A DNA stretch of 64,000 nt from positions 2,537 through 66,536 of the forward strand of contig CAWHDL010000011.1 in the NCBI GenBank assembly GCA_963828065.1. Direction: 5' to 3'. Source of the DNA: an uncultured Actinomycetota bacterium. Lineage in GTDB: Bacteria > Actinomycetota > Actinomycetes > Mycobacteriales > Mycobacteriaceae. The notes under the pieces are model-generated. The model was not told the DNA's origin. It worked only from the letters and a program-made list of their open reading frames with translations, and did not search any database. Below are positions 23,565-59,499 of this stretch, one piece after another. The position numbers and the translations under genes are program-made. How positions within the stretch are numbered: the first letter of the stretch is position 1; every line of letters begins with the position of its first letter.

Positions 23565-25267
23565 AGGCGCGGACCGTGGCGCTGCGTCCACGGTTGGCCG
23601 CGGTGGTGACCGCCGAGGTGGTGGCGCTGGCGGCGTTCGTGGCGCTGCCGCCGCACCGGGCGGGCTGGTGGCCGGCCACCGTGATCTCGTTGGCCGCGCT
23701 GCTGCTGCTGGTGGTGACGGTGCACGGCCGCAACGCGCCCGGCTGGGTGGCGGCGTGGGCGCGCCACCGGCGCCGGCTGCGCAGGCCCGCGCCGGTGGGT
23801 GCGGCGGTCGACGTTCCGCACGGTGCACTGGTGTGTGGGGTGCGCGTCGAGGAGCACGAGGCCCTCACCATGGTCCGGGTCAGCGGGCGACCCTATGCCC
23901 CAACGCTTTTGCGGGGCTCGACGCGGTCGGTGAGCACCAACGTCGTGCCGCTTTCGGTGCTGGTCGGGCTGTTGGATCAGCCCGGCGGTCTGCGCCTGGC
24001 CGGTATCGACGTGGTGTCCTCGGGGCAGCGGGTGCGCCGCGCCGAGGGCTACCCGCCGCTGTACAGCACGCTGCTGGCCGACCGGCCCGCGGCGGGCCGG
24101 CGAGCGACCCGGCTGGTCGTGCGCCTCGACATCACCGGCTCGGCGCCGGGTCTGGCGTACCGCTCCTCGATCGGCGCGGCCGCGGCCGCGGCCACCGAAC
24201 GCATCGTGAATGCGCTGCGCCAGCGGGGGATTCGGGCCACCGCGCTCAGCGCCGAGGAACTCGACGCCGCGCTGGCCGAACTGGGCGCGGGTCTGGTGCG
24301 CGCCCCGGCGCGCACCAGACCCGACAGTGAGGCCGACGCCGCGGACCGGCCAGCGCCCGTGCCAGTCGGTGCGGCCGCGCCCGGGTACGGCTCGGCGCCG
24401 GGCCCGCGGTCGCGCTGGCGCACCGTGCAGACCACGGCGGGGTATCTGTCGAACTACTACTTTTCCCCAGAGGACATCACGACCGCCGCGCTGAATCAGA
24501 TGTGGGCGCTGCGCAGCGACGACGTCGTTCAGACCACCAGCCTGCGCAAGGACCGCACCGGTCACCGTGATGACGATGCCGCGGTGCTGGTGTCGGCGCT
24601 GGTGCGCACCGGTGATCCGCAGCCCCCGCCGCAGCCCCCGACGCTGAACCTCAACCCGCTGCCCGGGGACCAGTACGCGGCGACCCTGCGCGCCGCGCCG
24701 ACCGCGCGCCCGCACCTGAACGTGCCGGCCCGGGACCTGGATGGCGGTGAGCCGCTGGACATTCCGATCGGCGCGACCGGGATCCTGGTCGGCGCTGCGC
24801 GCTACGACGACCCGGCCGCCAACCCACCGGTTCACGCCGACGACCTTGTGATGCTGGCGTTGACCGACCCGGACCGCGCGACTCGCATCAGCATGCAGGC
24901 CTCCGAATTCTATGTGCGCCAGCTTTTGATCCGCGCCGCGGCGGTGGGGGAGCGCATCGCGATTTACTCCCATCAGCCCGACCGGTGGAACTCGTTGACC
25001 CAGCCCAACATCGCGGTGGCCGAACGGCGCCGGCCGCCGCCGTTCGTGCCGACCATCACGGTCAACGACCGCCCCACCGCGCTGGCCGCCGCCGGGTTGT
25101 CGGCCACCGTCATCACGCTGGGCGCCGTCGGTGACGCCGGACTGGCACCGGATCTTCGCTTCGTGCAGACCTCGCCGACCACCGTGCTGATCGCCACCCC
25201 GACGCAGGAGTTGGAGGTGGCGATCGTGGCGTTCCGCCAGGAGCAGGCCTGGATGGGTCTGGCCTAG
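23561..25267 (+). CDS. eccE: ESX membrane component EccE
   Basis: 568 aa, GTGA overlap with mycP. Two N-terminal TM helices and an Arg-rich juxtamembrane segment. Position after mycP is canonical. Confidence 0.75.
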   Translation: MKARTVALRPRLAAVVTAEVVALAAFVALPPHRAGWWPATVISLAALLLLVVTVHGRNAPGWVAAWARHRRRLRRPAPVGAAVDVPHGALVCGVRVEEHEALTMVRVSGRPYAPTLLRGSTRSVSTNVVPLSVLVGLLDQPGGLRLAGIDVVSSGQRVRRAEGYPPLYSTLLADRPAAGRRATRLVVRLDITGSAPGLAYRSSIGAAAAAATERIVNALRQRGIRATALSAEELDAALAELGAGLVRAPARTRPDSEADAADRPAPVPVGAAAPGYGSAPGPRSRWRTVQTTAGYLSNYYFSPEDITTAALNQMWALRSDDVVQTTSLRKDRTGHRDDDAAVLVSALVRTGDPQPPPQPPTLNLNPLPGDQYAATLRAAPTARPHLNVPARDLDGGEPLDIPIGATGILVGAARYDDPAANPPVHADDLVMLALTDPDRATRISMQASEFYVRQLLIRAAAVGERIAIYSHQPDRWNSLTQPNIAVAERRRPPPFVPTITVNDRPTALAAAGLSATVITLGAVGDAGLAPDLRFVQTSPTTVLIATPTQELEVAIVAFRQEQAWMGLA

Positions 25268-25280
25268 CTTCAAAGTCCGC

Positions 25281-25357
25281 TGTAGGTTCCCATTTTGAGT
25301 GTCATATTCCCATTCCGGATGTCATCCCGATGTCATTTATGACATGGAAATGGGAAT
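25281..25357 (+). repeat. tnsA-proximal (Tn7R-type) end with three putative TnsB-binding sites
   Basis: Direct sites at 25285-25305 and 25306-25325 (TTCCCATTnnnnnTGTCAT) and an inverted site at 25339-25357. Palindrome ATGTCAT-TT-ATGACAT at 25330-25345. Confidence 0.65.
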
Positions 25358-25665
25358 TGTTGAAATGGAGCTGAGGTCGGCGGCGGCGAACTGGCACTGG
25401 TAACCCTCGGCCCGGAGGTGGTGACGTTTTCGTTCTGAGCTGTGGTCGCGCCGCTGTGGCCGTAGGCGCTCTCTTTGCCGCGTTGTGATCGGCTAAGGTC
25501 CCAGTGCGAGTCGGGTGTGATTTCCCGGCCCGGTGTATTGAACTGCCACATGAAATCTATGGCGTCAGTGACTGTATGGAACAACGCACGTGGGTTTGAC
25601 AACAAATTGGCGAGCACCGGAAACCCACGGATGTTGGTCTCGATCCAGGTTCACTTCGGTAAAGA

Positions 25666-26484
25666 TTGTGGTCCAGGGATTTACTGATGCCGCCTCCCAG
25701 ATCGACGATCGCAGACGCCGGTGTGGGTGTGACGAAGGCGCGGCCGATGAAGAAAAATGCCAAGAGTGTCGCTGGTTCTGCTGAGGCGTGCTTTAAGCGA
25801 TCCGACGGCCAGGTCGAGGTAGTGGCGTGGAACGACTTGGACCCCAACGCCGTAGCCGAAGGCCGGCCATGGCGGACTTTCCCTTGGTATCTCGGGCAGA
25901 AGAACTATTCAGGGCTGTATTGGTGCGCCACTGAATCCCGATTGGTCGGATACGAGTCGCGTTTGGAGTTGACTCGGCTGGTGATGGCCGACTTCGACGT
26001 GGCGGCAAAGCGGATCGTAAGTCAACCATTTCGGCTCACCGCCACCAACGGCGAAGAGCGCATTCGCCGGGTCCCCGACTATCTCGTGATTACCGAGGCC
26101 GGTGTGTTTGTAATCGACGTGACGCGCGCAAGCAAGTTGGAGAGACCCGAATTTGCTGGAGTCTTGGAGCAGACGCGCCAGATCGTGGAGTCCCGGGGGT
26201 GGATCTACGAGATCGCCAGCGAGCCCGCACGAGTCGAGTACAGCAACATCCGTTTCCTTGCCGGCTATCGGCGGCCCTGGTTGTTCAAGCCCGAAGTTCT
26301 GGCTGAGGTGAGGCAGGTCGCGCAGACGGTTCCTGAACTAACCATAGGGGAGATCAGCTCGCGTACAACGCTTCCCAGGCCGACTGCATTGCCGGCCCTG
26401 ATGCATCTGCTGTGGCGGCAAGAGTTCCGTGTTGATTTGACGCACAGACTCTCGCCGCACACGATGGTCCGGACGATGGCATGA
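25666..26484 (+). CDS. tnsA: TnsA-like transposase endonuclease subunit
   Basis: E/D/K restriction-endonuclease-like motifs (GYESRLE, VPDYLV, VIDVTRASK). ATGA overlap with tnsB. Start uncertain (TTG 25666, ATG 25687 or 25747). Confidence 0.7.
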   Translation: MWSRDLLMPPPRSTIADAGVGVTKARPMKKNAKSVAGSAEACFKRSDGQVEVVAWNDLDPNAVAEGRPWRTFPWYLGQKNYSGLYWCATESRLVGYESRLELTRLVMADFDVAAKRIVSQPFRLTATNGEERIRRVPDYLVITEAGVFVIDVTRASKLERPEFAGVLEQTRQIVESRGWIYEIASEPARVEYSNIRFLAGYRRPWLFKPEVLAEVRQVAQTVPELTIGEISSRTTLPRPTALPALMHLLWRQEFRVDLTHRLSPHTMVRTMA

Positions 26485-28661
26485 CCAATCAGGCGCCAAG
26501 TGCTCGGCGTGCCCGCTCCGCAGTGCCGGTTGGTGTCGGTACCACTTTCGCCTACGACGGCGAAACCGTCACCGTCGTCGAGATGCTCCCGACGAGTCGC
26601 GGCAACGAAGTCATGGTCGCCGACCGCGGCGGTGAACGTCGCTACCGGCTGTCGCTGCGTGAGCTGCTGGCTTCGGGGCGCGCTTCGATCATCACCATCG
26701 ACGACGGCCCGCGCAGCGACGACGACCTCGAAGTCGCCGGCGTGGTGCTGTCCAATCTCAGCAGCAGCCAACTGCGGGAGGTCACGCAGAAGGCAGACCA
26801 TGTGAGGGAGGTGCTGACCGGCTACAAATCCGGGTCTGCCAATACCGCCGCGCCGGGTGAGCCGCGAAATGAGTATGCCCCGGAGTTGTCCTTGGGTCAG
26901 CGCTACCTCGCCAAGGCACGCGAGGTCGGCCGCTCACACCGCACGGTCCGGCGGTGGGTGGCTGCCTACCTCGAGCACGGCGAGGCGGGGATCGCCGCAA
27001 CGATGTGCAGCAATCCGCTGGGGCGCACTGATCAGCGGTGGCTGGACACGGCCACCGAGATCATGATGGAGAACGCGGCGATGTCGCGGCCGAACAGGAA
27101 AAGCATCTTGATGCAAACCCGTGCCCGGTTGGCCTTGATCTATGGACCCGGTGTGGTACCCATCCCACCGAGGACGACCGCCTACAAGCGACTCGAGCAG
27201 ATCAACCGGCGCGTACCAACCTTTGACGGCAGCCGGGAACGCAATCGCGATGTCGCCGCCAGGGCGGATCGAGAGTACGGGCAGCTGCTCCCCTCTCGGC
27301 CCGGTGAATATGTGGTGATGGACACCAACTGCCTCGACGTGTTCGCGTTGGACCCGGTCACGCTGCGGTGGGTATCCGTTGAGGCTACGGTCGCGATGGA
27401 CGCCTACACCCGATGCGTCGTCGGGCTTCGCGTCACACCGACAACGAAGTCACTCGACGTCGCCGCAACTCTTTTTCAGGCGTTTCGGCCCCTCCCGGCG
27501 CCCGACTACTGGCCCGAGCATGCCGTGTGGCCCGAACACGGCATCCCGCGGGTCGTCTTCCCTGACGCAGACGCGTTGGCGGGCCGTCAGGCCGGTGTCG
27601 CCAACCCGGCGATCGTGCCGGAAACGATCGTGGTCGACCATGGCCGACCGTTCAAATGCCAACACATCAACAGCGTGTGCCAGCGGATGGGCATCTCCAT
27701 TCAGCCGGCCCGGCTCAGGCAAGGGCAGGACAAAGGAATCCTTGAGCGCTTGTTCCTGACTCTGCGGCTGGATCTACTCCAGCACCTGCCGGGCTATAAA
27801 GGACCCGATGTGTATTCGCGCGGTGTCGCGCCGGAATCCGATGCGTTCTTCTTTCTCGATGAGATCGAACAGCTGATCCGGCAATGGATCGCGGCGGTGT
27901 ATCACCACCGTCCCCACGACAGCCTGTTCGACCCCAGCGTGCCGAGGCACCGCCTGTCTCCGGCGCAGATGTTCCAGCACGGCGTGGAACGCGCCGGCTA
28001 CATCGAAGCACCGCGCGATCCCGACCTCGCCTTCGAATTTCTGCGACCGGTCAGACGCCAAATCCATCACTACGGGGTGGATATCGACAGACGCAGGTAC
28101 AACGGTCCAGGCCTGAACGGGTTCCGGGAAACTGACAGCGACTATCTCGGACAGACGCAGCGCCGCTGGCATCTGCACGTCAACCCCGACGACATCACGC
28201 GCGTGTTCTTTCGCCGCCCCGACACCCGCAAGTGGCACACCCTGCTCTGGACGAAGGCTCCGGCCGCAGAACTGCCCATGAGCGAGGATGCAGCCAAGTA
28301 CGCCCGCCGGCTTGCCGCCGCTCGCGGCACCTCCACGGAGCCCGACGCCGCGCTGGCGGCGATGTTGGAGCAATGGAATCTGGGATTGGGGATGAGCCCA
28401 GCCGAGCGACGCATCGCCCTTCGGGTGGCCCGGGAACGGGCGAGCCTTCTCGCGGACCTCGCCACCGACGACGAGTCGCAGGCCCGCGCATTCATCGCCG
28501 AGTTGCTCGCCGCCACCGCTGAGAAATCGCCACCAGCGGCAGAGGAATCGGACAGCACCGAAACACAGGACGATCTCGACAGCTACAGCGATGACACGGC
28601 CGAAAGCGACGACGACATGGACGACGACACCTACTACGCGGATGCGTTTGAAGAGTCATGA
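26481..28661 (+). CDS. tnsB: TnsB-like DDE (Mu/rve-type) transposase
   Basis: 726 aa. N-terminal HTH regions, DDE core (YVVMDTNCLDVF, IVVDHGRPFKC) and an acidic C-terminal tail. Sits between tnsA and tnsC. Confidence 0.85.
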   Translation: MTNQAPSARRARSAVPVGVGTTFAYDGETVTVVEMLPTSRGNEVMVADRGGERRYRLSLRELLASGRASIITIDDGPRSDDDLEVAGVVLSNLSSSQLREVTQKADHVREVLTGYKSGSANTAAPGEPRNEYAPELSLGQRYLAKAREVGRSHRTVRRWVAAYLEHGEAGIAATMCSNPLGRTDQRWLDTATEIMMENAAMSRPNRKSILMQTRARLALIYGPGVVPIPPRTTAYKRLEQINRRVPTFDGSRERNRDVAARADREYGQLLPSRPGEYVVMDTNCLDVFALDPVTLRWVSVEATVAMDAYTRCVVGLRVTPTTKSLDVAATLFQAFRPLPAPDYWPEHAVWPEHGIPRVVFPDADALAGRQAGVANPAIVPETIVVDHGRPFKCQHINSVCQRMGISIQPARLRQGQDKGILERLFLTLRLDLLQHLPGYKGPDVYSRGVAPESDAFFFLDEIEQLIRQWIAAVYHHRPHDSLFDPSVPRHRLSPAQMFQHGVERAGYIEAPRDPDLAFEFLRPVRRQIHHYGVDIDRRRYNGPGLNGFRETDSDYLGQTQRRWHLHVNPDDITRVFFRRPDTRKWHTLLWTKAPAAELPMSEDAAKYARRLAAARGTSTEPDAALAAMLEQWNLGLGMSPAERRIALRVARERASLLADLATDDESQARAFIAELLAATAEKSPPAAEESDSTETQDDLDSYSDDTAESDDDMDDDTYYADAFEES

Positions 28662-29863
28662 CCAGATCAGTCGCGAAACCATCGCACCGGCAGCGTAGTT
28701 CGCAAGACCCTCCACTGCGCAGCCGCAATTCCGAGAACCACGACCCAGTGGGCGCGCCAAAGGTCACGCTGGACAACCTCACAGTGTCTCGCAAGGAAGG
28801 GTTCCAAGCCAAGGCAGAGGCACCCAAGCGTGAACAACCGGAACTGTTGACAACCAGACAGCTCGCAGCGTTCAGCACCCATGCTCGCCGTGAGTACAAC
28901 GAGCAGCGCAACCTCTGGCACGCGAACCTGCCGACCATCAACACCTCACAGCTGCTCCAATTGCGCGAGGATCTCACCGACATCGTGGCCAGCAACCAGC
29001 ACGACGGTGACAAAGCCAAGGGCGCGATCGCCATCGAAGGCAGCGCCGGGATCGGGAAGACCTTCGCAACACTGGATTTCGCGTACGGCTACCACAACGA
29101 CCAGATTGCCCAGCATGGCCGCCTGACCAGGGACGGAAACGAACGATGGCCGGTCTGCCGCGTCGGTATGTCGGGCAACACCGGCATTAAGGACTTCAAC
29201 AGAGCGATGCTCGGGTTTTACAACCACGCAGGCATCAAGCGCGGCACCGCCGTGGACTTCGCCAACCGGGCACTGGACTGCGTGCTGTCGTGCGAGACGA
29301 AGCTGCTCATCGTCGACGAACTGCACTTCCTCAAACAGCGGACCACGAGCGTGCAGATCAGCAACCAGTTCAAATACATCAGCAACGAATTCCCCGTCAC
29401 CATCATCTTCATCGGTATCGGGCTGCGACAACGCGGCCTCTACAGCGACGGCACCTATGCCGACGGCATACTCGGCCAAAGCGGACGACGCATCACAGCA
29501 TTGAGGCTGCGCGAATTCACGATCGACACCCCCGAGCATCGCCGTGAATGGCGCCAACTGTTGCTGGCCATTGAGAAGCGCGTCGTACTGGCACGCAAGC
29601 ACCGGGGGATGCTGGTCGATCTGTCGTACTACCTGTTCGAACGAAGTTCGGGCCGCATCGGCCCGCTGACCACCTTGATCAATCGTGCCTGCCAACGCGC
29701 GGTCCGCACCGGCGTCGAAGGTATCGATCAGGATCTGTTCGACAGGGTCCGCACCGACGCGGCCTCCGAGCAGCAACGCCCGGAGATGCGGGTCAAGATC
29801 CGACATGCTCAGCGGGAGTTGCTGACGCCACGATCGCGCAGGCCGCGGCCGCGACCTTCGTGA
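28658..29863 (+). CDS. tnsC: TnsC-like AAA+ ATPase
   Basis: 401 aa. Walker A GSAGIGKT, Walker B LLIVDELHF. ATGA overlap with tnsB. Confidence 0.8.
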   Translation: MTRSVAKPSHRQRSSQDPPLRSRNSENHDPVGAPKVTLDNLTVSRKEGFQAKAEAPKREQPELLTTRQLAAFSTHARREYNEQRNLWHANLPTINTSQLLQLREDLTDIVASNQHDGDKAKGAIAIEGSAGIGKTFATLDFAYGYHNDQIAQHGRLTRDGNERWPVCRVGMSGNTGIKDFNRAMLGFYNHAGIKRGTAVDFANRALDCVLSCETKLLIVDELHFLKQRTTSVQISNQFKYISNEFPVTIIFIGIGLRQRGLYSDGTYADGILGQSGRRITALRLREFTIDTPEHRREWRQLLLAIEKRVVLARKHRGMLVDLSYYLFERSSGRIGPLTTLINRACQRAVRTGVEGIDQDLFDRVRTDAASEQQRPEMRVKIRHAQRELLTPRSRRPRPRPS

Positions 29864-29915
29864 ACCCCCACTCGGATCGGCCCTGGGCGCCGGGACCGGA
29901 ATCGAGCCGCGCTCG

Positions 29916-32276
29916 GTGAGACGGACACTGCCCGTGCGAGTCGAGCCCATGCCCGGCGAAGCGTTGGAGTCGTGGTTGGCCGCATTCGCCACCCGTATGA
30001 ACGCCACCTGGGGCGAGGTCCTCGACGCCGTGCTCCCCGTCGGTGCGGACGGGATCGCCAGCACCCACCGCGGAGCGGTATTGACCACAGGCCTGACCGT
30101 CGAAGAGCGGGAGAGTATCTCGACCGCCACGGAAGTCAACGTCGCTGATCTCGACGCGATGACCTTGATGGGCCATTACGGCAGCCCGATGATGACGACC
30201 GACGCGCGCACCGGCCGGGCACGGACCCCGTGGGGCTTGGTGTATCGGCAGCGGTTCTGCCCCTTCTGCATGAAGGCTGCTCCGGGCCGCCGCAAGCTCG
30301 AATGGTTCCTGCCGTGGATCGCGACCTGCATTGAACATCGCTGCTTTCTGGTCGATTCGTGCCCGCAGTGCGCTCAGCTGCAGCTCGCCGCGGACTGGTT
30401 CAGCCGCCGGCTGTATCCACATCCGGACCGCTGCTCCCGGTTGGTCAAGGGCGAGCCGCATAATCGCCGGTGCACAGCGCGGCTGTCGCGCGCTCGCCCC
30501 GATAAGCTACGACCGGGACATCCCGTGCTGACCATGCAGCAGACGCTCACCGAGCTCCTCGCCGCGGATGCAGTCGATGCGGGCGTCTACCGCGTAGCGC
30601 CGGTGTCAGCGGAGCAGCTGCTCATCGATGTGCGCGTGCTCGGGAACTGGATAGTCAGAGCACCCAACCCCACTGACGTGATCGAACTATTCGGAGGCCG
30701 CGCGACCGATCACGAGATCGGCCTGTGGCGCCGACGCCTGCACCTGCTGGCGAACACAACTCACACCTACGACGAGAACCAGGACGTGGCGAGCGCGACG
30801 CGGGTAGCGCTCGCCGCGCCGGCGGCATGGGTCGGCACCGGAGTGGCCGCAGCCCTGACCGTGCTGATGCGGCCCTCGCTCGAGGATGCCGGTCGCGCCT
30901 TCCGGGCAGCCACGTCCTCTGCACCGGCCAGGGAGATTCGATATCGGACCCGAGTCTCTGGACTGACCCACAGCGCGGCGGTGACCGCCGTGGATCTCAA
31001 GGCTAGGGCCGCGGACTTCACGGTGATCGAGGAGTTGCGCTACCGGACGTTTACTCATCTGCCGCGGCTGCCCGACACCCGGCGGTTTGCAACCAAACAC
31101 GCGATGCTGCACGCGGTGCCCACACTGTTCTGGCCCGAGTGGGCGTTCCGGCTCGACACGGAAGACTTACCGTGGGGCACCGCCCGGCAAGTGATGTCAC
31201 GGCTGCTACTCACGATCGGCTGCGTCATGTCGACACCCGAACTAGAACGACACCTGCACTCCACCGTCGGAGCTCAGCGCATCGCCGAAGCAGCCAACAA
31301 CTTTCGCGCCCATCCGAATTGGGAAGGGATCATCACCGCGCTGCTGCGGCTGCACGAACACCTGCAGGCACACCCACCGCCGATCGACTACCAGCGTCGC
31401 CGCACCCTGAACTACGATCACCTGCTGCCCGAGCAACAGTGGACACACCTGGTCGCCGAAGAAGGTCTGCGCACATCGCCGACGACCGCGGCCGCCGCGC
31501 GACTGTGGCTCATCGAACAGCTCAGCGGCGCCCCGGTGCCCAATACGCCGCAGGCGTTGCACTGCCGGGGAGTGTGCACCGACCGGATGAGGACAACCCT
31601 CACACCCCAGCTGGTCCGAGCACTTAATGCAGTCAGCGCCGACTATTTAGGAAAACAGGGAGTCTCGGGTGAGCCCCTGACCTGGGTACCGCCGCTGAGT
31701 CTCCTCGAGGGTCTGAATCTGCCTGGGAAACCGCCGGAGACGATTGAGCCGAACTCAATGTACAAACTCCTCGACGCCGGCCTTACCGTGACTGCCCTTG
31801 CCCACAGACTCGACGCATCCGTGTGGAAGGTCCGCTACCAGCTCGAACACCACCCCATTCCTAGCGCCGACGTCCGAACCTGGTCACCGAAACGGATCAA
31901 AGGACGCCGTCGAATCGGCACCCGCGAACGCGTGCGGGCATTGCTGCCCGAACAGAAGCTGCGCGACCTCCACGAACATCAAGGGTTAACCTTCGCGCAG
32001 ATCGCCGGCCGCCTCGAGCTTCCGCTGTCCTCGGGCTACTTGGCTCGGGTGGTGTCCCACCTAGCCATCGAGTACGGAATCCACCATCGTCGCCAACCGC
32101 TAGGAGAATTGATCACCGCGGATTGGATCCACCAACGCCACGTCGTCGAGCGCAGAACGCTTGGTGTGATGGCCGACGAAATCGGCGTTTCTGACTCGAC
32201 CATCGGGAAGTGGGCCCGAAAATTCGGAATCCCGGTTCTCATTGGAAGCGGCGCCCTCTGCTCGACCCGCGTGTGA
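29916..32276 (+). CDS. tniQ: TniQ/TnsD-family target selector (786 aa)
   Basis: N-terminal TniQ signature (VEPMPGEALESWLAAFA) and Cys cluster CPFC...CIEHRC...CPQC. C-terminal HTH-like segments (LTFAQIAGRL, MADEIGVSDSTIGKWARKFGI). Confidence 0.8.
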   Translation: MRRTLPVRVEPMPGEALESWLAAFATRMNATWGEVLDAVLPVGADGIASTHRGAVLTTGLTVEERESISTATEVNVADLDAMTLMGHYGSPMMTTDARTGRARTPWGLVYRQRFCPFCMKAAPGRRKLEWFLPWIATCIEHRCFLVDSCPQCAQLQLAADWFSRRLYPHPDRCSRLVKGEPHNRRCTARLSRARPDKLRPGHPVLTMQQTLTELLAADAVDAGVYRVAPVSAEQLLIDVRVLGNWIVRAPNPTDVIELFGGRATDHEIGLWRRRLHLLANTTHTYDENQDVASATRVALAAPAAWVGTGVAAALTVLMRPSLEDAGRAFRAATSSAPAREIRYRTRVSGLTHSAAVTAVDLKARAADFTVIEELRYRTFTHLPRLPDTRRFATKHAMLHAVPTLFWPEWAFRLDTEDLPWGTARQVMSRLLLTIGCVMSTPELERHLHSTVGAQRIAEAANNFRAHPNWEGIITALLRLHEHLQAHPPPIDYQRRRTLNYDHLLPEQQWTHLVAEEGLRTSPTTAAAARLWLIEQLSGAPVPNTPQALHCRGVCTDRMRTTLTPQLVRALNAVSADYLGKQGVSGEPLTWVPPLSLLEGLNLPGKPPETIEPNSMYKLLDAGLTVTALAHRLDASVWKVRYQLEHHPIPSADVRTWSPKRIKGRRRIGTRERVRALLPEQKLRDLHEHQGLTFAQIAGRLELPLSSGYLARVVSHLAIEYGIHHRRQPLGELITADWIHQRHVVERRTLGVMADEIGVSDSTIGKWARKFGIPVLIGSGALCSTRV

Positions 32277-32761: not shown

Positions 32762-33355
32762 GTGCATATGGATGGATCGACGGCTCCCGCACTAGGCGCT
32801 CTACTGGCTAAGCACCAGATTGACCTGAGTGTCGAAGAGGTCCTCGACGAGCTGGACTCCGCGTTTGCGGCAATCCCCGGGGCAATCACCCTGTCCGCGA
32901 CAGAGGTGGATTTCCTCCGCGAGCACGCCGGACCCGGTGCAGCAGCGGTGATCGACACATGGTCGGCAGACAATGAACGTCAGGCCCGCGCCCGCATTGC
33001 GTTGCGGCAACTCACCAGCGCGGTCTCAGGATCGGTCAGCATCAAAGAAGCCGCCGCGATCCTCGGCGTCGACCGGTCCCGCGTATCGCGGCGCATCACT
33101 GGAAAAGCCTTATGGGCCTTCGACCTTCAAGGAACCCGACGCATCCCTCGCTGGCAGTTCCTTGGTGACGAACTGCTTCCCGGGTTGGACGTGATTGTGC
33201 CCGCGATACCACGTGGCACCACGCCCGCGGTTCTGGATGTGTTCATGCACACCCCACAGCCCGACTTCGACGACCGGACGCCGATCGAGCATCTGGCCGC
33301 CGGCGGCGACCCCGCATTAGTTGCCGGATTCATCGAGGATCTCGGGCGCTGGTGA
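32762..33355 (+). CDS. Xre-HTH antitoxin with C-terminal MbcA/ParS (DUF2384-like) toxin-binding domain
   Basis: HTH SIKEAAAILGVDRSRVSRRI. C-terminal ..TPIEHLAAGGDPALVAGFIEDL. GTGA overlap with the downstream RES gene. Confidence 0.75.
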   Translation: MHMDGSTAPALGALLAKHQIDLSVEEVLDELDSAFAAIPGAITLSATEVDFLREHAGPGAAAVIDTWSADNERQARARIALRQLTSAVSGSVSIKEAAAILGVDRSRVSRRITGKALWAFDLQGTRRIPRWQFLGDELLPGLDVIVPAIPRGTTPAVLDVFMHTPQPDFDDRTPIEHLAAGGDPALVAGFIEDLGRW

Positions 33356-33984
33356 ACCCACGGCCCAAACCCAAGGCGCCACGAACACCGCCCGAACAGC
33401 TCATCAGCGAACCTCACGACATCACCGACTACACCGACACGCTCTGGCGGGTCCACCGCACCGAAGGCGAGCACGTGCTGCCCTGGAACACGCTGCGCAC
33501 CCACGGGCCGCTGCCGTCGATGCGCTGGGACCCACACCCCGGTCCTCATCCGACCTCGGGGGCTGAGGCCGTCCTGTACGCCGCAGCCGATGTCGCAACC
33601 AGCCTTGCCGAGGTCTACCAGACAACGCGCGTGATCGACACCCGCGCCGGCGCGCCGACTCTCACCGCGTGGCAACCCCAACGCAGACTGCGGCTACTCG
33701 ACTTGTCGGGCACGTGGCTGCTCCGCAACACCGCATCCACTGGGTTGCTGGCCGCACCCCGATCCACATGCCGACGGTGGGCCCGCGCCATCTACACGAC
33801 CTGGCCTGAACTCGACGGTCTCTACGTCCCGTCGACTATGACCGGGCGCCCGAACATTGTGCTGTGGAATGCCGCCGCAGACTCGATACCCGCGATGCCG
33901 TTGTTCTCCCGCCCGCTCGCTCACCCGCTCGTATGGTCCATCACGCACGCGGCAGCCGCAGAGATCGGATACCACATCCTGTAA
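33352..33984 (+). CDS. RES-domain toxin (MbcT/ParT-like NAD-targeting family)
   Basis: 210 aa with conserved R (LWRVHR), E (SLAEVY) and S (LYVPSTM) positions. Paired with the Xre antitoxin. Confidence 0.8.
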   Translation: MNPRPKPKAPRTPPEQLISEPHDITDYTDTLWRVHRTEGEHVLPWNTLRTHGPLPSMRWDPHPGPHPTSGAEAVLYAAADVATSLAEVYQTTRVIDTRAGAPTLTAWQPQRRLRLLDLSGTWLLRNTASTGLLAAPRSTCRRWARAIYTTWPELDGLYVPSTMTGRPNIVLWNAAADSIPAMPLFSRPLAHPLVWSITHAAAAEIGYHIL

Positions 33985-34381: not shown

Positions 34382-35143
34382 CTAGAACAGGTAAGCCCCG
34401 TATGGGCCAACATTGGTTGCGCCCGGCGCCATCGGGGCCACATCGATCAGATAGTCGGGCTGAGATGCCGTGAGCACTGAAAGCTCCTCTTTGACCAGTT
34501 CTTTGAGAGCATCGGTGTCATCGGGCGAATCAGTCCAGTACAGGCGCGGTTGAGAACTGTCGATGATCCCCTCGTCACGCTTGACTGCCTTTCCAAGCAA
34601 GTAGTGCAACTCGGACCCGTTGTGATACTTGATGTCTTTCTTCAGACCGACGTAGGCGACCATAGGCCGTGGTGCAGGTCGTGGCGGTGGACGTTGCGAC
34701 TGTGGAACCAATATGCCCATCTGTCTGAAACCCATGATGGCCGCTTCGCGGCCACGCTCGGCGCCCGGATTGATTTGGCTGGCTTTGCCCAGCCGCGACC
34801 TGTCGCTTCGTAGATAGGGACACACGATCGCTGAATAGACGGCGCAGGAGAAGTGAAGCGGCCCAGCATCGTCGAGTGAACGCTCGCGCTGGTACCGACG
34901 GATGTCTTCGGCATCGCCTTGCCCCCAGACTCGGTAGACAAGCGTCCCCTCCGGCATCTCGTATCCGCACACAGCGCATGCACGACGCAGCGCCAGAGCA
35001 ACAGTGCGATCATTGTCGACTTGCGCAAGCACGGGCTGGCCAGAGACCCAGCCGGCTTCGGCGAGCGCGTGGAATCCATGAGCGTCCTCGGGTAGGTCCG
35101 CGATCCACGCAGGCGGCGTCGGTGCGTCTAGGGACATGAACAA
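34382..35143 (-). CDS. hypothetical protein with Cys/His cluster (third gene of the PIN operon)
   Basis: 253 aa. CAVCGY...(37 aa)...HFSCAVYSAIVCPYL suggests a metal-binding site. Pro-rich linker, then a Lys/Asp-rich C-terminal domain. Family not recognised. Confidence 0.55.
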   Translation of the reverse strand: MFMSLDAPTPPAWIADLPEDAHGFHALAEAGWVSGQPVLAQVDNDRTVALALRRACAVCGYEMPEGTLVYRVWGQGDAEDIRRYQRERSLDDAGPLHFSCAVYSAIVCPYLRSDRSRLGKASQINPGAERGREAAIMGFRQMGILVPQSQRPPPRPAPRPMVAYVGLKKDIKYHNGSELHYLLGKAVKRDEGIIDSSQPRLYWTDSPDDTDALKELVKEELSVLTASQPDYLIDVAPMAPGATNVGPYGAYLF

Positions 35144-35176
35144 GGAGCGTACGGGCGCCTTATGGTAGCCATGGCC

Positions 35177-36067
35177 TTAACTGGTAGGAGGCTCGACGAA
35201 TGGTAGACCGGCTACGTGCAACTTCGTCTGTAAGTTGATGTCGCTCGTCGCCACGTGAAGCGCCGAGCCGGGGTGTTGAGATTGCAACAGCAGGGCTGCG
35301 GCGACTAACCGATCATCAGGTACTGCAAGGTCCAGCCAGTCGGGCAGATTGGTTCCGCGGGGTTCGACATGTTCGAACTTGGCAACGACCTGACCCTCGA
35401 CGCGGACACCCTCAAGTGCGTTGCCATTGTTGCGGATGCCTTTGAGGCCGGCCACCGCCCGCTGCGCACCGGTGCGCACCATTTCGTTGCGCCCAGCGCG
35501 CTTGAGATCGTCAAGTTCGCCGAGAACAACCGGCAGTAGATGGACCATGTACTTCGGTCCGAGGGCGTCGATGTACGCGGCGACATTCGGATTGTCGATC
35601 AGCGCATTCGTGTCCACGATCAGCCGAGTGGGGTAGTCGTCCGCCGGAAGTAAGGCGAATAGGCCGCGGATGTCGTCGATGGTTGCGATTAGCCTCTGTT
35701 GCGCCGTAGCTATGTCTCGGGGAATGGAGTGGTCATAGCTGTCGGGACGGATGAGCCATCGTTCAAGATGTTCGAGGTCGTGCTTGACGCGCTTGCTAAT
35801 GGTCGGAGTTGGATTTGGGAATAGGAGGCGAAATCGTGGCTCCCAACCGCGAAGCGTTCCGAGTAGGGCCATCCGCGCCGCCTCGAGTTCGATGTCGCTA
35901 TCGGTCCAGCCCCAGTCGGAAGCACCCATGAAGATCACCATCGATCCGGGGCTATTTGGATTGACGTACCTAATGCCACTTGCGGCCAGGACTGCAGCGT
36001 AGTGCTCGGCGATCCCGCCAAGCTCCTCGAGTAGCTGCTCTGCGTAACTTTGTCTTGGTGTGGGCAT
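35177..36067 (-). CDS. PIN-domain nuclease with an unknown ~150-aa N-terminal domain
   Basis: 296 aa. The C-terminal half carries PIN acidic residues in context: LIVDTNALID, LLPVVLGELDDLK, DDRLVAAALL, VATSDINLQTK (PIN_4/YacL-like pattern). Confidence 0.7.
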   Translation of the reverse strand: MPTPRQSYAEQLLEELGGIAEHYAAVLAASGIRYVNPNSPGSMVIFMGASDWGWTDSDIELEAARMALLGTLRGWEPRFRLLFPNPTPTISKRVKHDLEHLERWLIRPDSYDHSIPRDIATAQQRLIATIDDIRGLFALLPADDYPTRLIVDTNALIDNPNVAAYIDALGPKYMVHLLPVVLGELDDLKRAGRNEMVRTGAQRAVAGLKGIRNNGNALEGVRVEGQVVAKFEHVEPRGTNLPDWLDLAVPDDRLVAAALLLQSQHPGSALHVATSDINLQTKLHVAGLPFVEPPTS

Positions 36068-36083
36068 TCCGTCAGGCCACGAC

Positions 36084-36758
36084 TCAGGCGTTTGCTACGC
36101 GATAGTGTTCCCGAATGCGTCGCGGATCTCGGGTGCATCCGAGCGCGATGCAGTACGTGACGACGAAGTCGTCGTTGAGCCCGGCGCCGCCAAATGTTCG
36201 CATGTATTCATGGACGTATTGGCGGTCGCTCCCGCTCTTGGGCGGAGACGATAGCCAGTCATCCCGAAAGAGCATGCTGATGAACTCGTCATGCAGCGAG
36301 GCTTCCAGCGGCGGCGTCGGTTCGCCGGTCTCGGCGTTGAACGCGCCGGTCGCGGTCGCCCACCCCAGAACCCCAGGAGCCTTACCCCATTCGAAAACTG
36401 TCAGGGTGGATTCTCCGACGCGTGACACACACTTGATTAACGATTCCTCAGTTGGCCACGCTGCAACCACGGGGCCGCCCCACGGCTCGCCATCAGATCG
36501 AGCGGACACCCACGTCGATGTCTCGGCCAGCGCCGCCAGAACCGGTGGGTTGTCGATCGCGTTGCCCGACTTCTGCGGCGTCATGATGATTCGCGTCGAC
36601 CGGCCGCGTCGCTCGTTGTCGTTGAGCCACTTCGCGAGCCGCTGCCCTGCGCGCTCGTCCGGCCTTGCTTCGAAGGGCATCCATGCCGCGTTGTATATGG
36701 GTTGGACGACGTGCATCTTCGGAAATCTACTCGCCGGCGCCGACAATGAGCGCGCCAC
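36084..36758 (-). CDS. hypothetical protein (first gene of the PIN operon)
   Basis: 224 aa with balanced composition and alternating beta/alpha-like pattern (RIIMTPQKSG, PVVAAWPTEE, LTVFEWG). 16-nt gap to the PIN gene. Alternative start ATG 36716. Confidence 0.5.
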   Translation of the reverse strand: MARSLSAPASRFPKMHVVQPIYNAAWMPFEARPDERAGQRLAKWLNDNERRGRSTRIIMTPQKSGNAIDNPPVLAALAETSTWVSARSDGEPWGGPVVAAWPTEESLIKCVSRVGESTLTVFEWGKAPGVLGWATATGAFNAETGEPTPPLEASLHDEFISMLFRDDWLSSPPKSGSDRQYVHEYMRTFGGAGLNDDFVVTYCIALGCTRDPRRIREHYRVANA

Positions 36759-37296: not shown

Positions 37297-37367
37297 AACA
37301 GAGGACTGATCGTCACCGGGAGCTTGAAGTCGGCGTGTCGTCCGCGGTCTCCTACTTGTGCCGTCGG

Positions 37368-38546
37368 ATGAAAGGTTCAACCGCATTGGTCACCATCGGA
37401 GTCGATCCTCACAAGCGCACCCACACCGCGAGCGTCGTCGAAACGGGCACCGACAAAGTGCTGGCAACGTTGCAAATCGACGCGTCGCTTGCGGGCTACC
37501 GACGACTCCTGAAGTGGGCGTCGGGTTTCGAGCAGCGCCGGTGGGCAGTGGAAAACGCTCGGGGGTTGGGGCGGCATTTGGCGCAATGGTTGGTCGCGCG
37601 AGAGGAGGTCGTCGATGACGTGCCCTCGATAGCAACGGCGCGTGTTCGCGAGTTGTCTCGGGGCGGACGACGCAAGAACGATGTCATCGACGCCGCAGCG
37701 GCGGCCAGCGTGGCCGCGCTACGCGGTGACGCAAACCCTGTCGTGGCCGACGATCTCACCACGGTTCTGGCCCTGCTCGACGAGCGCCGCGACAACGTGG
37801 TCACCCAACGCACCAGGCTGATCAACCAATTGCATGCGCTGCTGCGTGATCTCCTGCCCGGTGGCGCGCCGACCGATCTAACCGCTGGTGACGCGTCGCG
37901 ACTGCTCACCGGCGTGCGTCCGGCGGGTCCCGTCGAAGCTGCTCGCAAACAACTGGCCCGCGAGCTGGTCGCCGAGATCCGCGACACCGATCAGCGGCTG
38001 AAGGCGCTCACAGCCCAAATCACAGACACTCTCGACGCGCACGGCACCCGACTGCGAGAGGTCCCCGGCATCGGTCCCGTCATCGCGGGGCGGTTGCTCG
38101 GACGGACTCGTCGTGCGGGCAGGTTCCGCAGCGCCTCCGCGTTCGCCAGCTATGCCGGCGTCGCACCGATCGAGGTCGCCAGCGGCGACCACGCGCGACA
38201 TCGATTGCCACGCGGTGGTGATCGGCAACTCAACCTCGCGCTGCACATCGTCGCGCTCACCCAGGTACGCATGCGCGAGAGCACCGGTCGGGCCTACTAC
38301 GACACGAAGGTCGTGGCTGGCAAGTCGCATAACGAAGCAATGCGTTGTTTGAAACGCCGGCTGGCCGACCGGGTTTGGCGACTCATGCTCTCTGACGAGC
38401 ACCGTTTGGCGGCAGGCCCGGGAGGACACTCGGGGGCGACTCTGACATCCAGCGCGGCTGGCTCAACCCCGACCACCAGCTCTTCGGACAAGTCACTTCC
38501 CGGACCCGCCGATCGCAACTCTACGACGCCCAGCCCAGCGGCTTGA
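37368..38546 (+). CDS. IS110-family (DEDD) transposase
   Basis: N-terminal VTIGVDPHKRTHTA.. and C-terminal ..VPGIGPVIAGRLLG.. motifs. ATG 37368 lies inside ORF 37335..38546. Confidence 0.85.
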   Translation: MKGSTALVTIGVDPHKRTHTASVVETGTDKVLATLQIDASLAGYRRLLKWASGFEQRRWAVENARGLGRHLAQWLVAREEVVDDVPSIATARVRELSRGGRRKNDVIDAAAAASVAALRGDANPVVADDLTTVLALLDERRDNVVTQRTRLINQLHALLRDLLPGGAPTDLTAGDASRLLTGVRPAGPVEAARKQLARELVAEIRDTDQRLKALTAQITDTLDAHGTRLREVPGIGPVIAGRLLGRTRRAGRFRSASAFASYAGVAPIEVASGDHARHRLPRGGDRQLNLALHIVALTQVRMRESTGRAYYDTKVVAGKSHNEAMRCLKRRLADRVWRLMLSDEHRLAAGPGGHSGATLTSSAAGSTPTTSSSDKSLPGPADRNSTTPSPAA

Positions 38547-38556: not shown

Positions 38557-38985
38557 GGAACCCCGGCATGTCCGGAGACTCCACTTCTTGGGAGGGTTGG
38601 AGTCATGTCAGGTGGTTCGTCGAGGAGGTATCCGCCGGAGCTGCGTGAGCGCGCGGTGCGGATGGTCGCCGAGATCAGCGATCAGCACAATTCGGAGTGG
38701 GCGGCGATCAGCGAGGTCGCTCGCCTGCTCGGGTCGGGTGCGCAGAGACGGTACGCAAGTGGGTCCGCCAGAGGCAGGTCGATGCCGGCTCGCGGCCGGG
38801 GACCACGACCGAGGAGCCCGCTGAGCTCAAACGGCTGAAGCGGGAGAACGCTGAATTACATAGGGCTAACGCTATTTTGAAGACGGCGTCGGCTTTTTTC
38901 GCGGCCGAACTGTGCGCCACGAGGCGCCGGGTTAATCGAGAGGTGGTGAGAGACCGTCTCCTTCGGGTCGTCGCAGCGGCCTGAA
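38557..38985 (+). pseudogene. IS6110-like (IS3 family) remnant: left IR plus frameshifted orfA, with orfB missing
   Basis: GGAACCCCGGCATGTCCGGAGACTCCA resembles the IS6110 terminal IR. orfA begins MSGGSSRRYPPELRERAVRMVAEI.. (ATG 38605) and shifts frame near 38737-38740 (..ARLLG / CAETVRKWVRQ..). Similarity is lost after ..TASAFFAAEL. A possible right-IR vestige (gagagaccgtctcc) lies near 38950. Confidence 0.7.
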
Positions 38986-39405
38986 TGAAGCTGCGGGGCA
39001 GCCAGTTGCCGTGGACATTGGTCTAACTTCTCGGACTCAGCTAATAGACTGTGCAGCAACATAGTTCGCGACGGATAAGGATCTGTATCAACTGCAGGTC
39101 ATCCCGCGCGAGCCTTCCGTTCGCACCCCTTCCGGCCTGATCCGACGGCTGACTTGGTTTAGGCCCGATTGCAGCTAGCAGGTACGCGCACGGTGCCGGT
39201 GGCTGGAAAATGTGATGGGGGTCACCCGTGCAGACATCGTCCACGTGCGCTGGCCACGATGAAGTCATTCTTCTGGTGCTCAGGGTCGACGCCACGCAGC
39301 GACCGTGATCGCCCCGGGGAATGCGTTGCAGCCCATACCGTGTGCCCTGCTACTCGAGGCGGGGTGGCGCACATGCTGTTTGATCCATCACCGAGAGGTA
39401 CGACG

Positions 39406-40128
39406 ATGACCCACACCCACCCCACACCGACAACAACGGGCGCCGGCGCCCCGATCGAGAGCGGCGAGCAGTTGCTCACCGGCTCCGGGGCTGCTCAGAC
39501 CATCGCCGGGATCACCATCCCCGACACCCCGCTGGTGCGGGACGTCACCACGCTGATCCGGGCGGCCGAGGAGGATCTGCTCTTCGATCATTCCCGCCGG
39601 GTGTTCCTCTTCGGCGCGCTGCAGGGCCGGCGCCGCGGTCTGCAGCCCGACCTGGAGCTGCTCTACGTGGGGGCAATGTTTCACGACATCGGGCTGACCC
39701 AGCGCTACCGCACCTCAAGCCTGCGCTTTGAAGTTGACAGTGCCAACGCGGCCCGCGACTTCCTGCTCGACCACGGCGTTGACGAAGCTGCCGCGCGCAA
39801 GGTGTGGCTTTCCATCGCGCTGCACACCACCCCGGGGGTGCCCGAATTCCTCGACCCCGAGATCGCGCTCGTCACCGCAGGCGTAGAAACCGACGTGCTG
39901 GGCATCGAACGCGACGACCTGCCCGCGGAAGCGCTCGCCGCCGTCACCGCCGCGCACCCGCGACCCAATTTCAAAGACCGTATCCTGCAGGCCTTTACGG
40001 ACGGCATGGCGCACCGGCCGCGCAGCACCTTCGGCACCGTCAACGCCGACGTGCTGGAACACTTCGACGACTCCTTCGTCCGAGACGACTTCGTGGAAAT
40101 CATCCGCAACAACACCTGGCCCGAATAA
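39406..40128 (+). CDS. HD-domain phosphohydrolase
   Basis: MFHDIGL HD motif. ATG 39406 lies inside ORF 39169..40128. Confidence 0.7.
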   Translation: MTHTHPTPTTTGAGAPIESGEQLLTGSGAAQTIAGITIPDTPLVRDVTTLIRAAEEDLLFDHSRRVFLFGALQGRRRGLQPDLELLYVGAMFHDIGLTQRYRTSSLRFEVDSANAARDFLLDHGVDEAAARKVWLSIALHTTPGVPEFLDPEIALVTAGVETDVLGIERDDLPAEALAAVTAAHPRPNFKDRILQAFTDGMAHRPRSTFGTVNADVLEHFDDSFVRDDFVEIIRNNTWPE

Positions 40129-40169
40129 GCCCGCGCGCACTGGCAGCCTACGAATCTGAGAGGAACGCT

Positions 40170-41018
40170 ATGAACGAGGCGTTGAGGCTAGCGGCCGACG
40201 AGAGAGCTCCTGCAAGCTTCACTGACGGCGACGTGTATTTCATCGGCAACGCAACGACTTTGATCCGGTTTGCCGGTTTCACGATCCTGACGGACCCGGC
40301 GTTTCTGCACAAGGGCAATCACGTGGATCTCGGTCACGGGATCTATGCACGGCGCGAGGTCGAGCCTGCCTGTCAGGTCTCGGATCTACCACCGCTGGAT
40401 TTGATCGTGCTCTCGCACTATCACGGCGATCACTTCGACGACGTCGCGGCCCGAGATCTCGACCGTGCCATCCCGATCCTGACCACCGACCATGCGGTCG
40501 GCCAGCTCCGTGAGCTCGGGTTCACCCAAGGTCTGGCCTTGGATACGTGGGACTCGGTGACCGTGGAAAAGGGGGAGGCACGGCTGGTGGTCACGGCGAT
40601 GCCCGCCAAGCACTCCACCGATGATGAGGTGGCGCTGATGCTGATGCCCGTGAACGGATCCATGCTCGACTTCTACCGCGGTGAGGATCGATTGTTCCGG
40701 CTCTACATCACCGGCGACACGATGCTGCACGACAGGCTGCGCGACATCCCCCGCTGGTATCCCGACATCGACCTCGGCCTGATCCACGCCGGGGGCACCA
40801 CACTGTTCTTGACGGTGGTGACCATGACCGGGGCCCAGGCTGTGCGGGCCGTGGAGATCACCAAACCCCGGACGGCCATCCCCATCCACTACAACGACTT
40901 CTCGGTATTCATGTCCGGCCTCGACGACTTCAAGCAGGCCGCCGCCCAGTCGCCCGCGAAGACCGAATTCCACTATCTCTCCCATGGCGAGACCTACAAC
41001 TTCGAGCCGCTCAGCTAA
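40170..41018 (+). CDS. MBL-fold metallo-hydrolase
   Basis: LSHYHGDHFD (HxHxDH) motif. ATG 40170 follows GAGAGGA; the longer ORF from 39804 overlaps the HD gene. Confidence 0.75.
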   Translation: MNEALRLAADERAPASFTDGDVYFIGNATTLIRFAGFTILTDPAFLHKGNHVDLGHGIYARREVEPACQVSDLPPLDLIVLSHYHGDHFDDVAARDLDRAIPILTTDHAVGQLRELGFTQGLALDTWDSVTVEKGEARLVVTAMPAKHSTDDEVALMLMPVNGSMLDFYRGEDRLFRLYITGDTMLHDRLRDIPRWYPDIDLGLIHAGGTTLFLTVVTMTGAQAVRAVEITKPRTAIPIHYNDFSVFMSGLDDFKQAAAQSPAKTEFHYLSHGETYNFEPLS

Positions 41019-49195: not shown

Positions 49196-49676
49196 GCGAC
49201 GCGTGATCCGACAGATCGGTTCGCGCGTTCAGTGGATCGAGCACTGCGGTCCTGGGGGAACCGTACGGGTAGGGCCGACCGCGGTCAGCGCCAGACACGC
49301 CGCGAATTATTCACCGGCGGCTCAAGCCCAGTGATGGCGACGGCGAGACTGACTGCGACCAGTTCGTGATGCTAACGGGACCCATGAACCGGGCACGGCC
49401 CGGACGCGTTGAGGCTGGAGGGAGCGTCAGGCGAGGTCTGGCGCGGCGCCGCCGGCGCCCATTCTCATCTGCCAGGCGTCAGTTGTCGTGGTTGACCGGG
49501 TATGGCGACCCGGTGATGACTGGCGGTGTGCGACCACGAGTCTCTTGCTAGATCTAATCCGACGCTCGCTCATTGGCCTTGCGTTGATTGGACGCGGTGG
49601 CGAGCGCGCGGTGACACGATATTGACGTGAGCGAGCGCCGGGGGCGGACCCGACAAACGCCATCCAGGAGGGCGCA

Positions 49677-54139: not shown

Positions 54140-54144
54140 GCCAC

Positions 54145-59464: not shown

Positions 59465-59499
59465 GCGGTGCTCCTTTGGTCGACTCGCATGTACGCGGT

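Follow-up and report, generated by a model that had tools for sequence, protein, structure and literature searches.

The subject of this analysis is a block of three co-directional minus-strand genes, here called A, B and C, at positions 34382-36758 of a 64,000-nucleotide (nt) stretch of DNA (the window) from contig CAWHDL010000011.1 of an uncultured member of the Mycobacteriaceae. A preliminary description of this DNA took the block for a single multi-component nuclease-based conflict system riding in a transposon; comparative genomics splits it into a two-gene cassette, A-B, and an unrelated passenger, C. The layout itself was described correctly, since the open reading frames (ORFs) 36084..36758 (224 aa, GTG start), 35177..36067 (296 aa, ATG) and 34382..35143 (253 aa, TTG) all lie on the minus strand with gaps of 16 and 33 nt. 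Two of the starts are revised. Homologues of A begin MHVV, which corresponds to the ATG at 36716, and homologue alignments, the sequence and the called protein agree on a gene of 210 aa (36084..36716), the upstream GTG at 36758 being only an ORF extension; the length of 224 aa given before therefore falls, while the statement that A resembles nothing familiar holds. Likewise, the real start of gene C is the ATG at 35137 according to homologue alignment and sequence, so that the 253 aa remain correct for the ORF and the protein has 251 aa (34382..35137), and the B-C gap becomes 39 nt. The block is also less GC-rich than the ESX genes, as had been judged by eye: GC content is 0.63, 0.59 and 0.60 for A, B and C, and GC content at third codon positions (GC3) is 0.74, 0.67 and 0.66, against 0.74–0.75 and ∼0.9 for the ESX genes. 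A promoter scan found no sigma-70-like sites around the three genes. The one terminator-like site there lies inside B on the opposite strand and was judged not meaningful, as were the flanking repeats, which are at chance level and include a 12-nt direct repeat CCGGCGCCGACA at 34299 and 36734. C is probably co-transcribed with A-B in the window, yet it lies outside the conserved unit.

Gene B encodes a two-domain protein whose C-terminal domain (residues 146–296 plus stop, 35177..35632, minus strand) is a PIN nuclease domain by Pfam, PHROGs and Foldseek. The four motifs first picked out by eye (LIVDTNALID, VVLGELDDLK, DDRLVAAALL and TSDINLQ) are all confirmed in the 296-aa protein, and residues 149–289 match Pfam PIN_4 (PF13638) over profile positions 1–127 of 132 with E = 9.7e–12 and 45.8 bits, the gathering cut-off being 21.9. 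A PhoH-like PIN region in PHROGs matches as well (E = 2.6e–7). In the AlphaFold2 (AF2) model of B (predicted local distance difference test, pLDDT, 88.2; predicted template-modelling score, pTM, 0.80) Foldseek finds Nmd4, SMG6/EST1A, AF0591 and a Thermus thermophilus (TTHA) PIN protein with E-values of 1e–4 to 1e–3, probability 1.00 and target-normalised template-modelling (TM) scores of 0.55–0.67, all covering only the PIN half. The catalytic acidic residues are D152 (35612-35614), E184, D251/D252 and D276 (35240-35242). Among 72 B homologues D152, D186, D251, D252, D276 and N278 are invariant; E184 is invariant in a set of 13 sequences and conserved in at least 90% of the 72. B thus has the PIN alpha/beta/alpha fold with an intact active site. 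Enzymes of the PIN_4.COG1875 group cleave single-stranded RNA with Mn2+ or Mg2+, and by homology with SMG6 and PhoH2 we expect B, which falls structurally into the SMG6/Nmd4/PhoH2 class, to act as a metal-dependent endoribonuclease through its PIN_4 domain.

The N-terminal domain of B (residues 1–145, 35633..36067) is more difficult to place, and its earlier characterisation as an unfamiliar ∼150-aa domain fused to the nuclease proved apt. It is modelled as a helical bundle (helices 8–29, 59–80, 88–106 and 119–139) with a beta-hairpin, and it has no match in Foldseek searches of PDB and BFVD, in PDB searches by sequence or by profile (the latter came back empty), or in Pfam, NCBIfam, PADLOC and PHROGs. 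Across the family this domain is as conserved as the PIN domain, with W54, R65, M66, L81, W104, L105 and R107 invariant. We propose that it is a regulatory or sensor (cis-inhibitory) module or one for substrate recognition.

Protein A has no match in Pfam, NCBIfam or PADLOC and none that is meaningful in PHROGs, and PDB searches by sequence and by profile gave nothing significant. Its AF2 model (pLDDT 87.9, pTM 0.88) comprises an alpha/beta domain (∼residues 9–125) and a helical C-terminal domain (139–209), for which Foldseek returned nothing at E ≤ 1e–3 in PDB or BFVD. Weak resemblances at TM ∼0.3 were seen to RecA-like helicase domain 2, the helicase modules of NAT10/TmcA, HGPRT and a phage PhoH-like protein (BFVD, E = 0.014, TM 0.30). 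In the family alignment there is no conserved Walker A lysine, the TPQKSGN loop not being kept as a P-loop, and acidic or histidine residues form no conserved constellation; this points to a protein that binds rather than catalyses. No antitoxin-type DNA-binding domain (HTH, RHH, AbrB or PhD) is present either, as judged by Pfam and NCBIfam and by an AF2 fold that is unlike antitoxin folds. The family is rare, with 25 clusters.

What holds A and B together is DNA homology with other loci. By blastn, the stretch from 36745, ∼30 nt before A begins, to 35181, at the stop of B, is the only part of the region with such homology, and identity to the window is 78% in L093, 72% in L087-89 and 69% (from within A) in L090-92. 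At the protein level, L093, where the genes lie near a Fic gene, has A at 83% and B at 79% identity with 3 nt between them; L087-89 have 74% and 70% with a gap of 6 nt; and L090-92, from M. goodii, have an intact B at 70% and an A at 80% of which only the last 122 residues are left, with a gap of ∼20 nt. Every examinable B homologue of at least 70% identity has an A homologue directly upstream, and the flanks are wholly different in each context. In L087, a metagenomic mycobacterial contig, the pair sits between SIR2_2 and DUF87 genes (SIR2-HerA) and KAP_NTPase/QatB/TatD genes (QatABCD), and in M. goodii it adjoins an ApeA-like HEPN gene and another rve/TniB/TniQ set. A-B is therefore a discrete mobile two-gene cassette of 1.56 kb (35181..36745, minus strand) that moves between unrelated contexts, with A as its upstream member.

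Two further co-occurrences are more distant. In Kitasatospora saccharophila (L024) an A-like gene (4223-4861) is convergent with B at a distance of 37 nt; the assignment rests on an iterated hidden Markov model (HMM) search (E = 4e–50) and on hhalign (probability 95%, E = 2.4e–8). On a metagenome contig (L101) a 31%-identical A (BLASTP E = 1e–22) lies 1.7 kb from a full-length B (HMM E = 2.6e–159). In both loci A and B are convergent or divergent, not operonic. Altogether, no more than 2 kb separates genes of the two families in 6 of ∼15 A contexts, which is far above chance for two rare families, and A stands without B in the other 9. These figures bear on the idea that A, B and C are functionally unlinked orphans sharing insertion hot spots, with the A-B adjacency being a fragment that spread recently. 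Each family does occur alone in several contexts, and the tight A-B arrangement is confined to B homologues at least 70% identical. Against this, the cassette has been kept at 70–79% protein and 69–78% DNA identity despite its changing surroundings, and the pairs in L024 and L101 would be very unlikely by chance, so that we hold this idea to be improbable.

The same evidence speaks to a second reading, in which A-B is a type II toxin-antitoxin (TA) pair, with A as a non-canonical antitoxin and B as a PIN toxin, serving as an addiction or stabilisation module for the transposon. The partner upstream of the PIN gene, gaps of 3–20 nt that suggest translational coupling, the mobility of the cassette and the adjoining Xre/RES pair, itself a TA module, would all suit it, and members of PIN_4 are listed among TA toxins (PMC5499597). 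However, intact B lacks A in most loci and A lacks B in the 9 contexts just mentioned; A, with 210 aa, has no HTH, RHH or AbrB domain; the truncated A of M. goodii stands beside an intact B; and the genes of L024 and L101 do not form operons. The A-B link is facultative on both sides, and we consider a TA pair unlikely.

The contexts in which A appears without B are varied. In L083 A overlaps an unrelated 278-aa gene, and in L094 the genes preceding it are DprA-like and PRTase-like. The A homologue of L095 (284-3931) has a P63C-domain gene on one side and a DarT-Macro (DarTG) pair on the other, DarTG being a validated toxin-antitoxin and defence module. Two A-family genes form a convergent paralogue pair in L096 (334-978 and 1009-1671), which, with the convergent A-like gene of L024, makes the family broader and more flexibly arranged than a first search indicated. 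An 83%-identical A is found in L081/82 in an integrase-bearing element that has no B; the genes after it are one of 95 aa and a C-like one in convergent orientation. A more distant subfamily has ordinary chromosomal neighbours, P450 and DUF732 genes for example. Ser/Thr kinase genes stand no more than one gene from A in three independent loci (L083 7677-9257, L098 3060-4559 and L101 6030-7763), and this proximity may exceed chance. We also considered the partners of A as cryptic PIN proteins and rejected this, as the 278-aa gene of L083 and a 351-aa gene of L081 are unrelated to B (hhalign probability <1%).

Protein C does contain the CxxC...HxxCx7C cluster noted earlier, both CAVCGY and HFSCAVYSAIVCPYL being present. 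In the numbering of the 253-aa ORF, which is used for coordinates and runs two above that of the 251-aa protein, the residues are C56, C59, H97, C100 and C108 (CAVCG ... HFSC ... VCP; 34820..34978, minus strand). All five are invariant in 17 homologues. Among 78 distant homologues C98 and C106 (251-aa numbering) are invariant, and C54, C57 and H95 are conserved in at least 90%, so the pattern Cys-x2-Cys ... His-x2-Cys-x7-Cys in the N-terminal half is near-invariant. By its residues the cluster probably binds zinc. C has no match in Pfam, NCBIfam or PADLOC, none meaningful in PHROGs, and none in PDB profile searches; in the 78 family members scanned no Pfam domain was detected except a SEC-C motif in 4. 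There are 19 clusters of homologues at the sequence level and 620 representative clusters at the profile level (E < 1e–3). The homologue search for C, unlike those for A and B, returned no 100%-identical protein from the window, and the gene may be uncalled on the source contig. Neither A nor C has relatives in IMG/VR.

The claim that the three genes make up one system could be confronted with 115 fetched loci, among them 80 genome loci carrying a B homologue, in which the presence of A and C was judged by tblastn and family HMMs. No triad exists in the 115. Co-occurrence of the three genes elsewhere was the check that the preliminary description had proposed for itself, and C is found in none of the 80 B loci: tblastn detected neither A nor C there, and the HMMs gave only two weak A-like matches, leaving 78 of the 80 without an A-like gene. 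C is missing as well from the other five A-B co-occurrences, and in the four other A-B contexts compared with the window by blastn the homology comprises A and B and nothing of C. C homologues occur without A or B in four contexts of their own, namely L084-86 (Mycobacterium sp. CBMA293), L102, L103/104 and L110-115.

A three-component nuclease-based defence or conflict system formed by A, B and C had been plausible from the co-directional and tightly spaced genes, from all three being uncharacterised and in mobile cargo, and, among the loci gathered here, from a C-family gene (34% identity) less than 1.2 kb from the A homologue in L081/82. That gene, however, converges on A and has another gene, of 351 aa, as its companion, and B is missing there. 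Since C accompanies B in none of the other loci examined and the homology of the cassette stops at the B stop, we reject the triad, which we now regard as very improbable. The transposon cargo at this locus is a mosaic and does not make up a single machine of three parts; C is independent of A-B and belongs to an uncharacterised family of its own. The case is a reminder that genes packed closely in one direction within such cargo need not form a system. The L081/82 gene itself (6001-8829 for the arrangement) lies ∼400 nt downstream of A, matches the broad C-family HMM with E = 2e–53 and is preceded by the 351-aa gene, which makes this another case of A and C lying near each other, though arranged otherwise than in the window. 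The suggestion that the block matches no named system fared better, as no family of PADLOC-DB v2.0.0 matched A, B or C at E ≤ 1.

B is by far the widest spread of the cassette's two genes, with more than 430 homologous clusters, all from Actinomycetota, and full-length conservation at 50–80% identity. Genera include Mycobacterium, Mycolicibacterium, Mycobacteroides, Streptomyces, Kitasatospora, Nocardia, Amycolatopsis, Micromonospora and Gordonia. B usually stands by itself in variable regions and is very unevenly distributed (86 matches in 185,579 species genomes); it is present on 12 Streptomyces or Actinacidiphila plasmids, in several cases near the ends of linear replicons, and 3 IMG/VR contigs carry B. 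None was found in 50,697 phage genomes, a result that is neutral with respect to a defence role. With A and C lacking relatives in IMG/VR and B missing from these phage genomes, a phage origin was rejected. An intact full-length ORF is present in 56 of the 80 B loci, and in the remaining 24 (30%) it is truncated, frameshifted or interrupted. One Streptomyces homologue (L066, 3797-4582 and 5968-6582) exists as N- and C-terminal pieces ∼1.4 kb apart, apparently by insertion, and seven others are frameshifted into two pieces.

No recurrent partner of B emerged from all-vs-all clustering of ORFs within 3.5 kb, where the largest non-B cluster is present at 9 of the 80 loci. Immediate neighbours, called with a GC3-based gene caller (run with a relaxed setting, B and C being low in GC3), occur in every orientation, often divergent or convergent, and the Pfam and PADLOC matches of these 138 genes are heterogeneous. 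Those of defence type include ApeA N-terminal domain with HEPN, SLFN/AlbA_2 (3 loci), HerA, PD-Lambda-1, DndB, mREase IV and patatin, and those of mobile elements include integrases, resolvase, transposase and ParA (3 loci). ApeA-type HEPN genes adjoin B in M. terramassiliense (L001 4270-5838, with ApeA_NTD1 and HEPN_Apea) and, faintly, in M. goodii (L090 9146-10504). Judged from genomes, this is the pattern to be expected of an accessory or conflict gene that turns over quickly. We found no paper describing the B family, and PIN domains have no part in the six Streptomyces systems of 10.1101/2025.01.08.631966.

Taken together, the observations are best explained by a mosaic of transposon cargo that includes a mobile A-B cassette, in which B is a self-contained PIN RNase of conflict type, A is optional and C is a passenger; we give this explanation a probability of roughly 0.55. 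B would be the effector, acting through metal-dependent RNA cleavage by its PIN_4 domain, and its N-terminal domain would hold the nuclease in check or pick its RNA substrate until a trigger arrives, most likely invasion by a phage or another mobile element. The expected outcome is RNA cleavage leading to growth arrest or abortive infection. We take B to be self-contained because intact solo copies exist in most genomes and because the conserved N-terminal domain is predicted to pack on the PIN domain. Gating in cis is suggested by the same solo copies, as a free PIN toxin would need neutralising. A, which is also found beside other conflict genes, would be an optional partner (modulator, sensor or adaptor) in one sub-clade of B and not an obligatory antitoxin, given its large size, its want of a DNA-binding fold, the fact that most lineages do without it and its truncation beside the intact B of M. 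goodii. C would merely have landed downstream, where it is probably read through from the A-B transcript.

Several points weigh against this explanation. A defence role would follow from genomic context, that is from guilt by association, and autoinhibition in cis from solo occurrence and a high pTM of the model. The fold of A has no significant match that would hint at its role, and none of the three proteins has a counterpart in PADLOC. The absence of B from phage genomes offers no sign of phage competition. The C-family gene so close to A in L081/82 leaves room for a looser A-C association, and the Ser/Thr kinase genes beside A in three loci could indicate a regulatory function outside defence. 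It is along the latter line that B, with or without A, might have a non-conflict accessory role such as stress-responsive RNA processing or decay of the PhoH2 kind, possibly wired to Ser/Thr kinases. B and PhoH2 share the PIN_4 class (PMC5499597), the alpha/beta domain of A weakly recalls RecA-like, helicase-domain-2 and PhoH-like folds (BFVD E = 0.014), kinase genes stand next to A or one gene away in L083, L098 and L101 with another, of 1816 aa, 4.5 kb away in the window, and the distant A subfamily resides among chromosomal genes. On the other hand, A has no Walker A motif and the structural resemblances are below significance; a patchy family with many copies on plasmids, on transposons or in defence islands and with 30% of them decayed is unlike a housekeeping gene. 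Such a role seems to us unlikely, about as much so as the TA pair.

The conflict-type RNase can also be put in a bolder form. B, alone or with A, may be an unrecognised anti-phage or anti-plasmid abortive-infection gene of Actinomycetota, in which an N-terminal sensor gates the PIN_4 domain in cis; A, as an accessory with a new fold, might couple the nuclease, and perhaps C-like or DarTG-adjacent effectors, to the trigger, and the family would spread in the form of a minimal cassette, by way of Tn7-like transposons, linear plasmids and defence islands. We put this forward tentatively, as a possibility that is more doubtful than the general explanation above.

The surroundings of the block agree with the preliminary description, which had placed it inside a Tn7-like element, convergent with an Xre/RES pair and with insertion sequence (IS) elements on the other flank. 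The core genes of the element lie upstream of the cargo with A, B and C: an unassigned 272-aa ORF (25666-26484), an rve/TnsB-like gene (26481-28661; rve weak at 23.7 bits, with HTH_23), TniB (28658-29863; E = 5.7e–10) and TniQ (29916-32276; E = 1.9e–17), the last three assigned by Pfam and all on the plus strand. An EccE gene (23561-25267) stands directly before the proximal end; end and core together occupy 25269..32276. Sequences at 25269-25296 and 54140-54112 form an imperfect inverted repeat of ∼27 nt starting TGTAGG, each with inward (G/A)TGTCAT arrays; the distal copy (54112-54140, minus strand), a probable end, is an inverted copy of GCTGTAGG(T/G)TC.CA..TTT..GTGTCAT. No target-site duplication was identified for these ends. 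Tentatively, the element is ∼29 kb long, with ends at ∼25.27 and ∼54.14 kb enclosing A, B and C. Just outside the distal end, a second end-like array (54148-54200) repeats the 25275-25327 end in direct orientation, and near the ends (25269-25360 and 54112-54225) TTCCCATT is seen 6 times, with 0.8 expected. These features point to another Tn7-like element in tandem, or to the remnant of an end, from ∼54.15 kb onwards; the ORFs beyond the second array (54350-59518) have no Pfam matches.

The Xre/RES pair (32762..33984, plus strand) is a neighbour outside the cassette and consists of an Xre-like HTH_17 gene (32762-33355, E = 6.6e–4) and a RES gene (33352-33984, E = 2.6e–16) that overlap by 4 nt. 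On the other flank, an IS110-family transposase gene (37335..38546, plus strand; DEDD_Tnp_IS110 E = 1e–22, Transposase_20 E = 5e–21) is divergent from A and lies 618 nt upstream of its start. Past it, a short ORF (38605-38984) beginning MSGGSSRRYPPELRERAVRMV resembles an IS3-family OrfA, with no Pfam match at E ≤ 0.001, and the region upstream of A seems to have received several insertions. The putative cargo also has an HD-domain gene with an overlapping metallo-beta-lactamase-fold ORF (39169-41018), the 1816-aa Pkinase-AAA_16-GAF-HisKA gene (41317-46767), separated from A by IS elements, and molybdopterin oxidoreductase and aconitase genes (48062-53829). If the distal end is correctly placed, this metabolic load is unusual for a Tn7-like element. 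Defence systems are abundant in the cargo of Tn7-like transposons (Benler et al. 2021, PMC8649781), and the window genes, downstream of tniQ and accompanied by the Xre/RES pair and IS elements, sit where defence and TA cargo typically does (PMC8649781); the M. goodii B homologue likewise adjoins rve/TniB/TniQ. Unlike typical defence cargo, the element bears the molybdopterin oxidoreductase, aconitase and large kinase genes as well. The likeness is one of context only and has no bearing on mechanism.

Among known systems, VapC of VapBC (PIN, PF01850) shares with B the PIN-like fold, the four acidic metal-binding residues and coding on mobile elements in mycobacteria, and by analogy the activity to be expected of B would be that of an endoribonuclease. 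Foldseek also finds VapC-5 and Rv0301 of Mycobacterium tuberculosis for B, although weakly (E ∼0.07). Unlike VapC, B scores as PIN_4 and not as PIN, and carries a conserved 145-aa N-terminal domain; with its 296 aa it is, as had been remarked, too large for a VapBC pair. Unlike VapBC, B usually has no upstream partner, and A, where present, is 210 aa long without a DNA-binding antitoxin fold. A VapBC-type pair was accordingly rejected: the antitoxin-type partner is absent, and obligatory pairing fails in 78 of the 80 B loci.

The PIN_4.COG1875 group, which includes PhoH2 of mycobacteria and phages and SMG6, Nmd4 and Swt1 of eukaryotes (Matelska et al. 2017, PMC5499597), gives the best Pfam and structural match to B. 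B differs from PhoH2 in that it has no fused or adjacent PhoH ATPase and that its PIN domain is C-terminal, that of PhoH2 being N-terminal. PhoH2 identity was rejected, as neither B nor A has a PhoH match in Pfam and A has no conserved Walker A lysine. The N-terminal helical domain of B has no counterpart in the group, and B is confined to the accessory genome of Actinomycetota. It should be noted, then, that membership in PIN_4 is known ground, and what is new is an uncharacterised, widespread actinobacterial PIN family together with a small cassette. The N-terminal domain of B and all of A, as confidently predicted folds without a match, are candidates for new sensor or regulatory modules. 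If B is indeed an autonomous, self-gated defence RNase, it would add an actinobacterial one- or two-gene system to a repertoire drawn nearly exclusively from Proteobacteria and Firmicutes, and would be of relevance to work on mycobacteriophages and Streptomyces phages, to phage therapy and to strain engineering.

Conceptually closest are two systems of DefensePredictor, both validated in E. coli: DS-3, a solo PIN defence protein that has no antitoxin and for which auto-inhibition up to the moment of infection has been proposed, and DS-5, a PIN RNase that needs a non-antitoxin partner (DUF5830/AcrIF4-like) (PMC13092281). Their architectures are different from ours, the DS-5 partner having DUF5830 and A no Pfam match, and their hosts are Proteobacteria. 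Likened by description and not by sequence, DS-3 mirrors the solo B, and DS-5 mirrors the A-B cassette.

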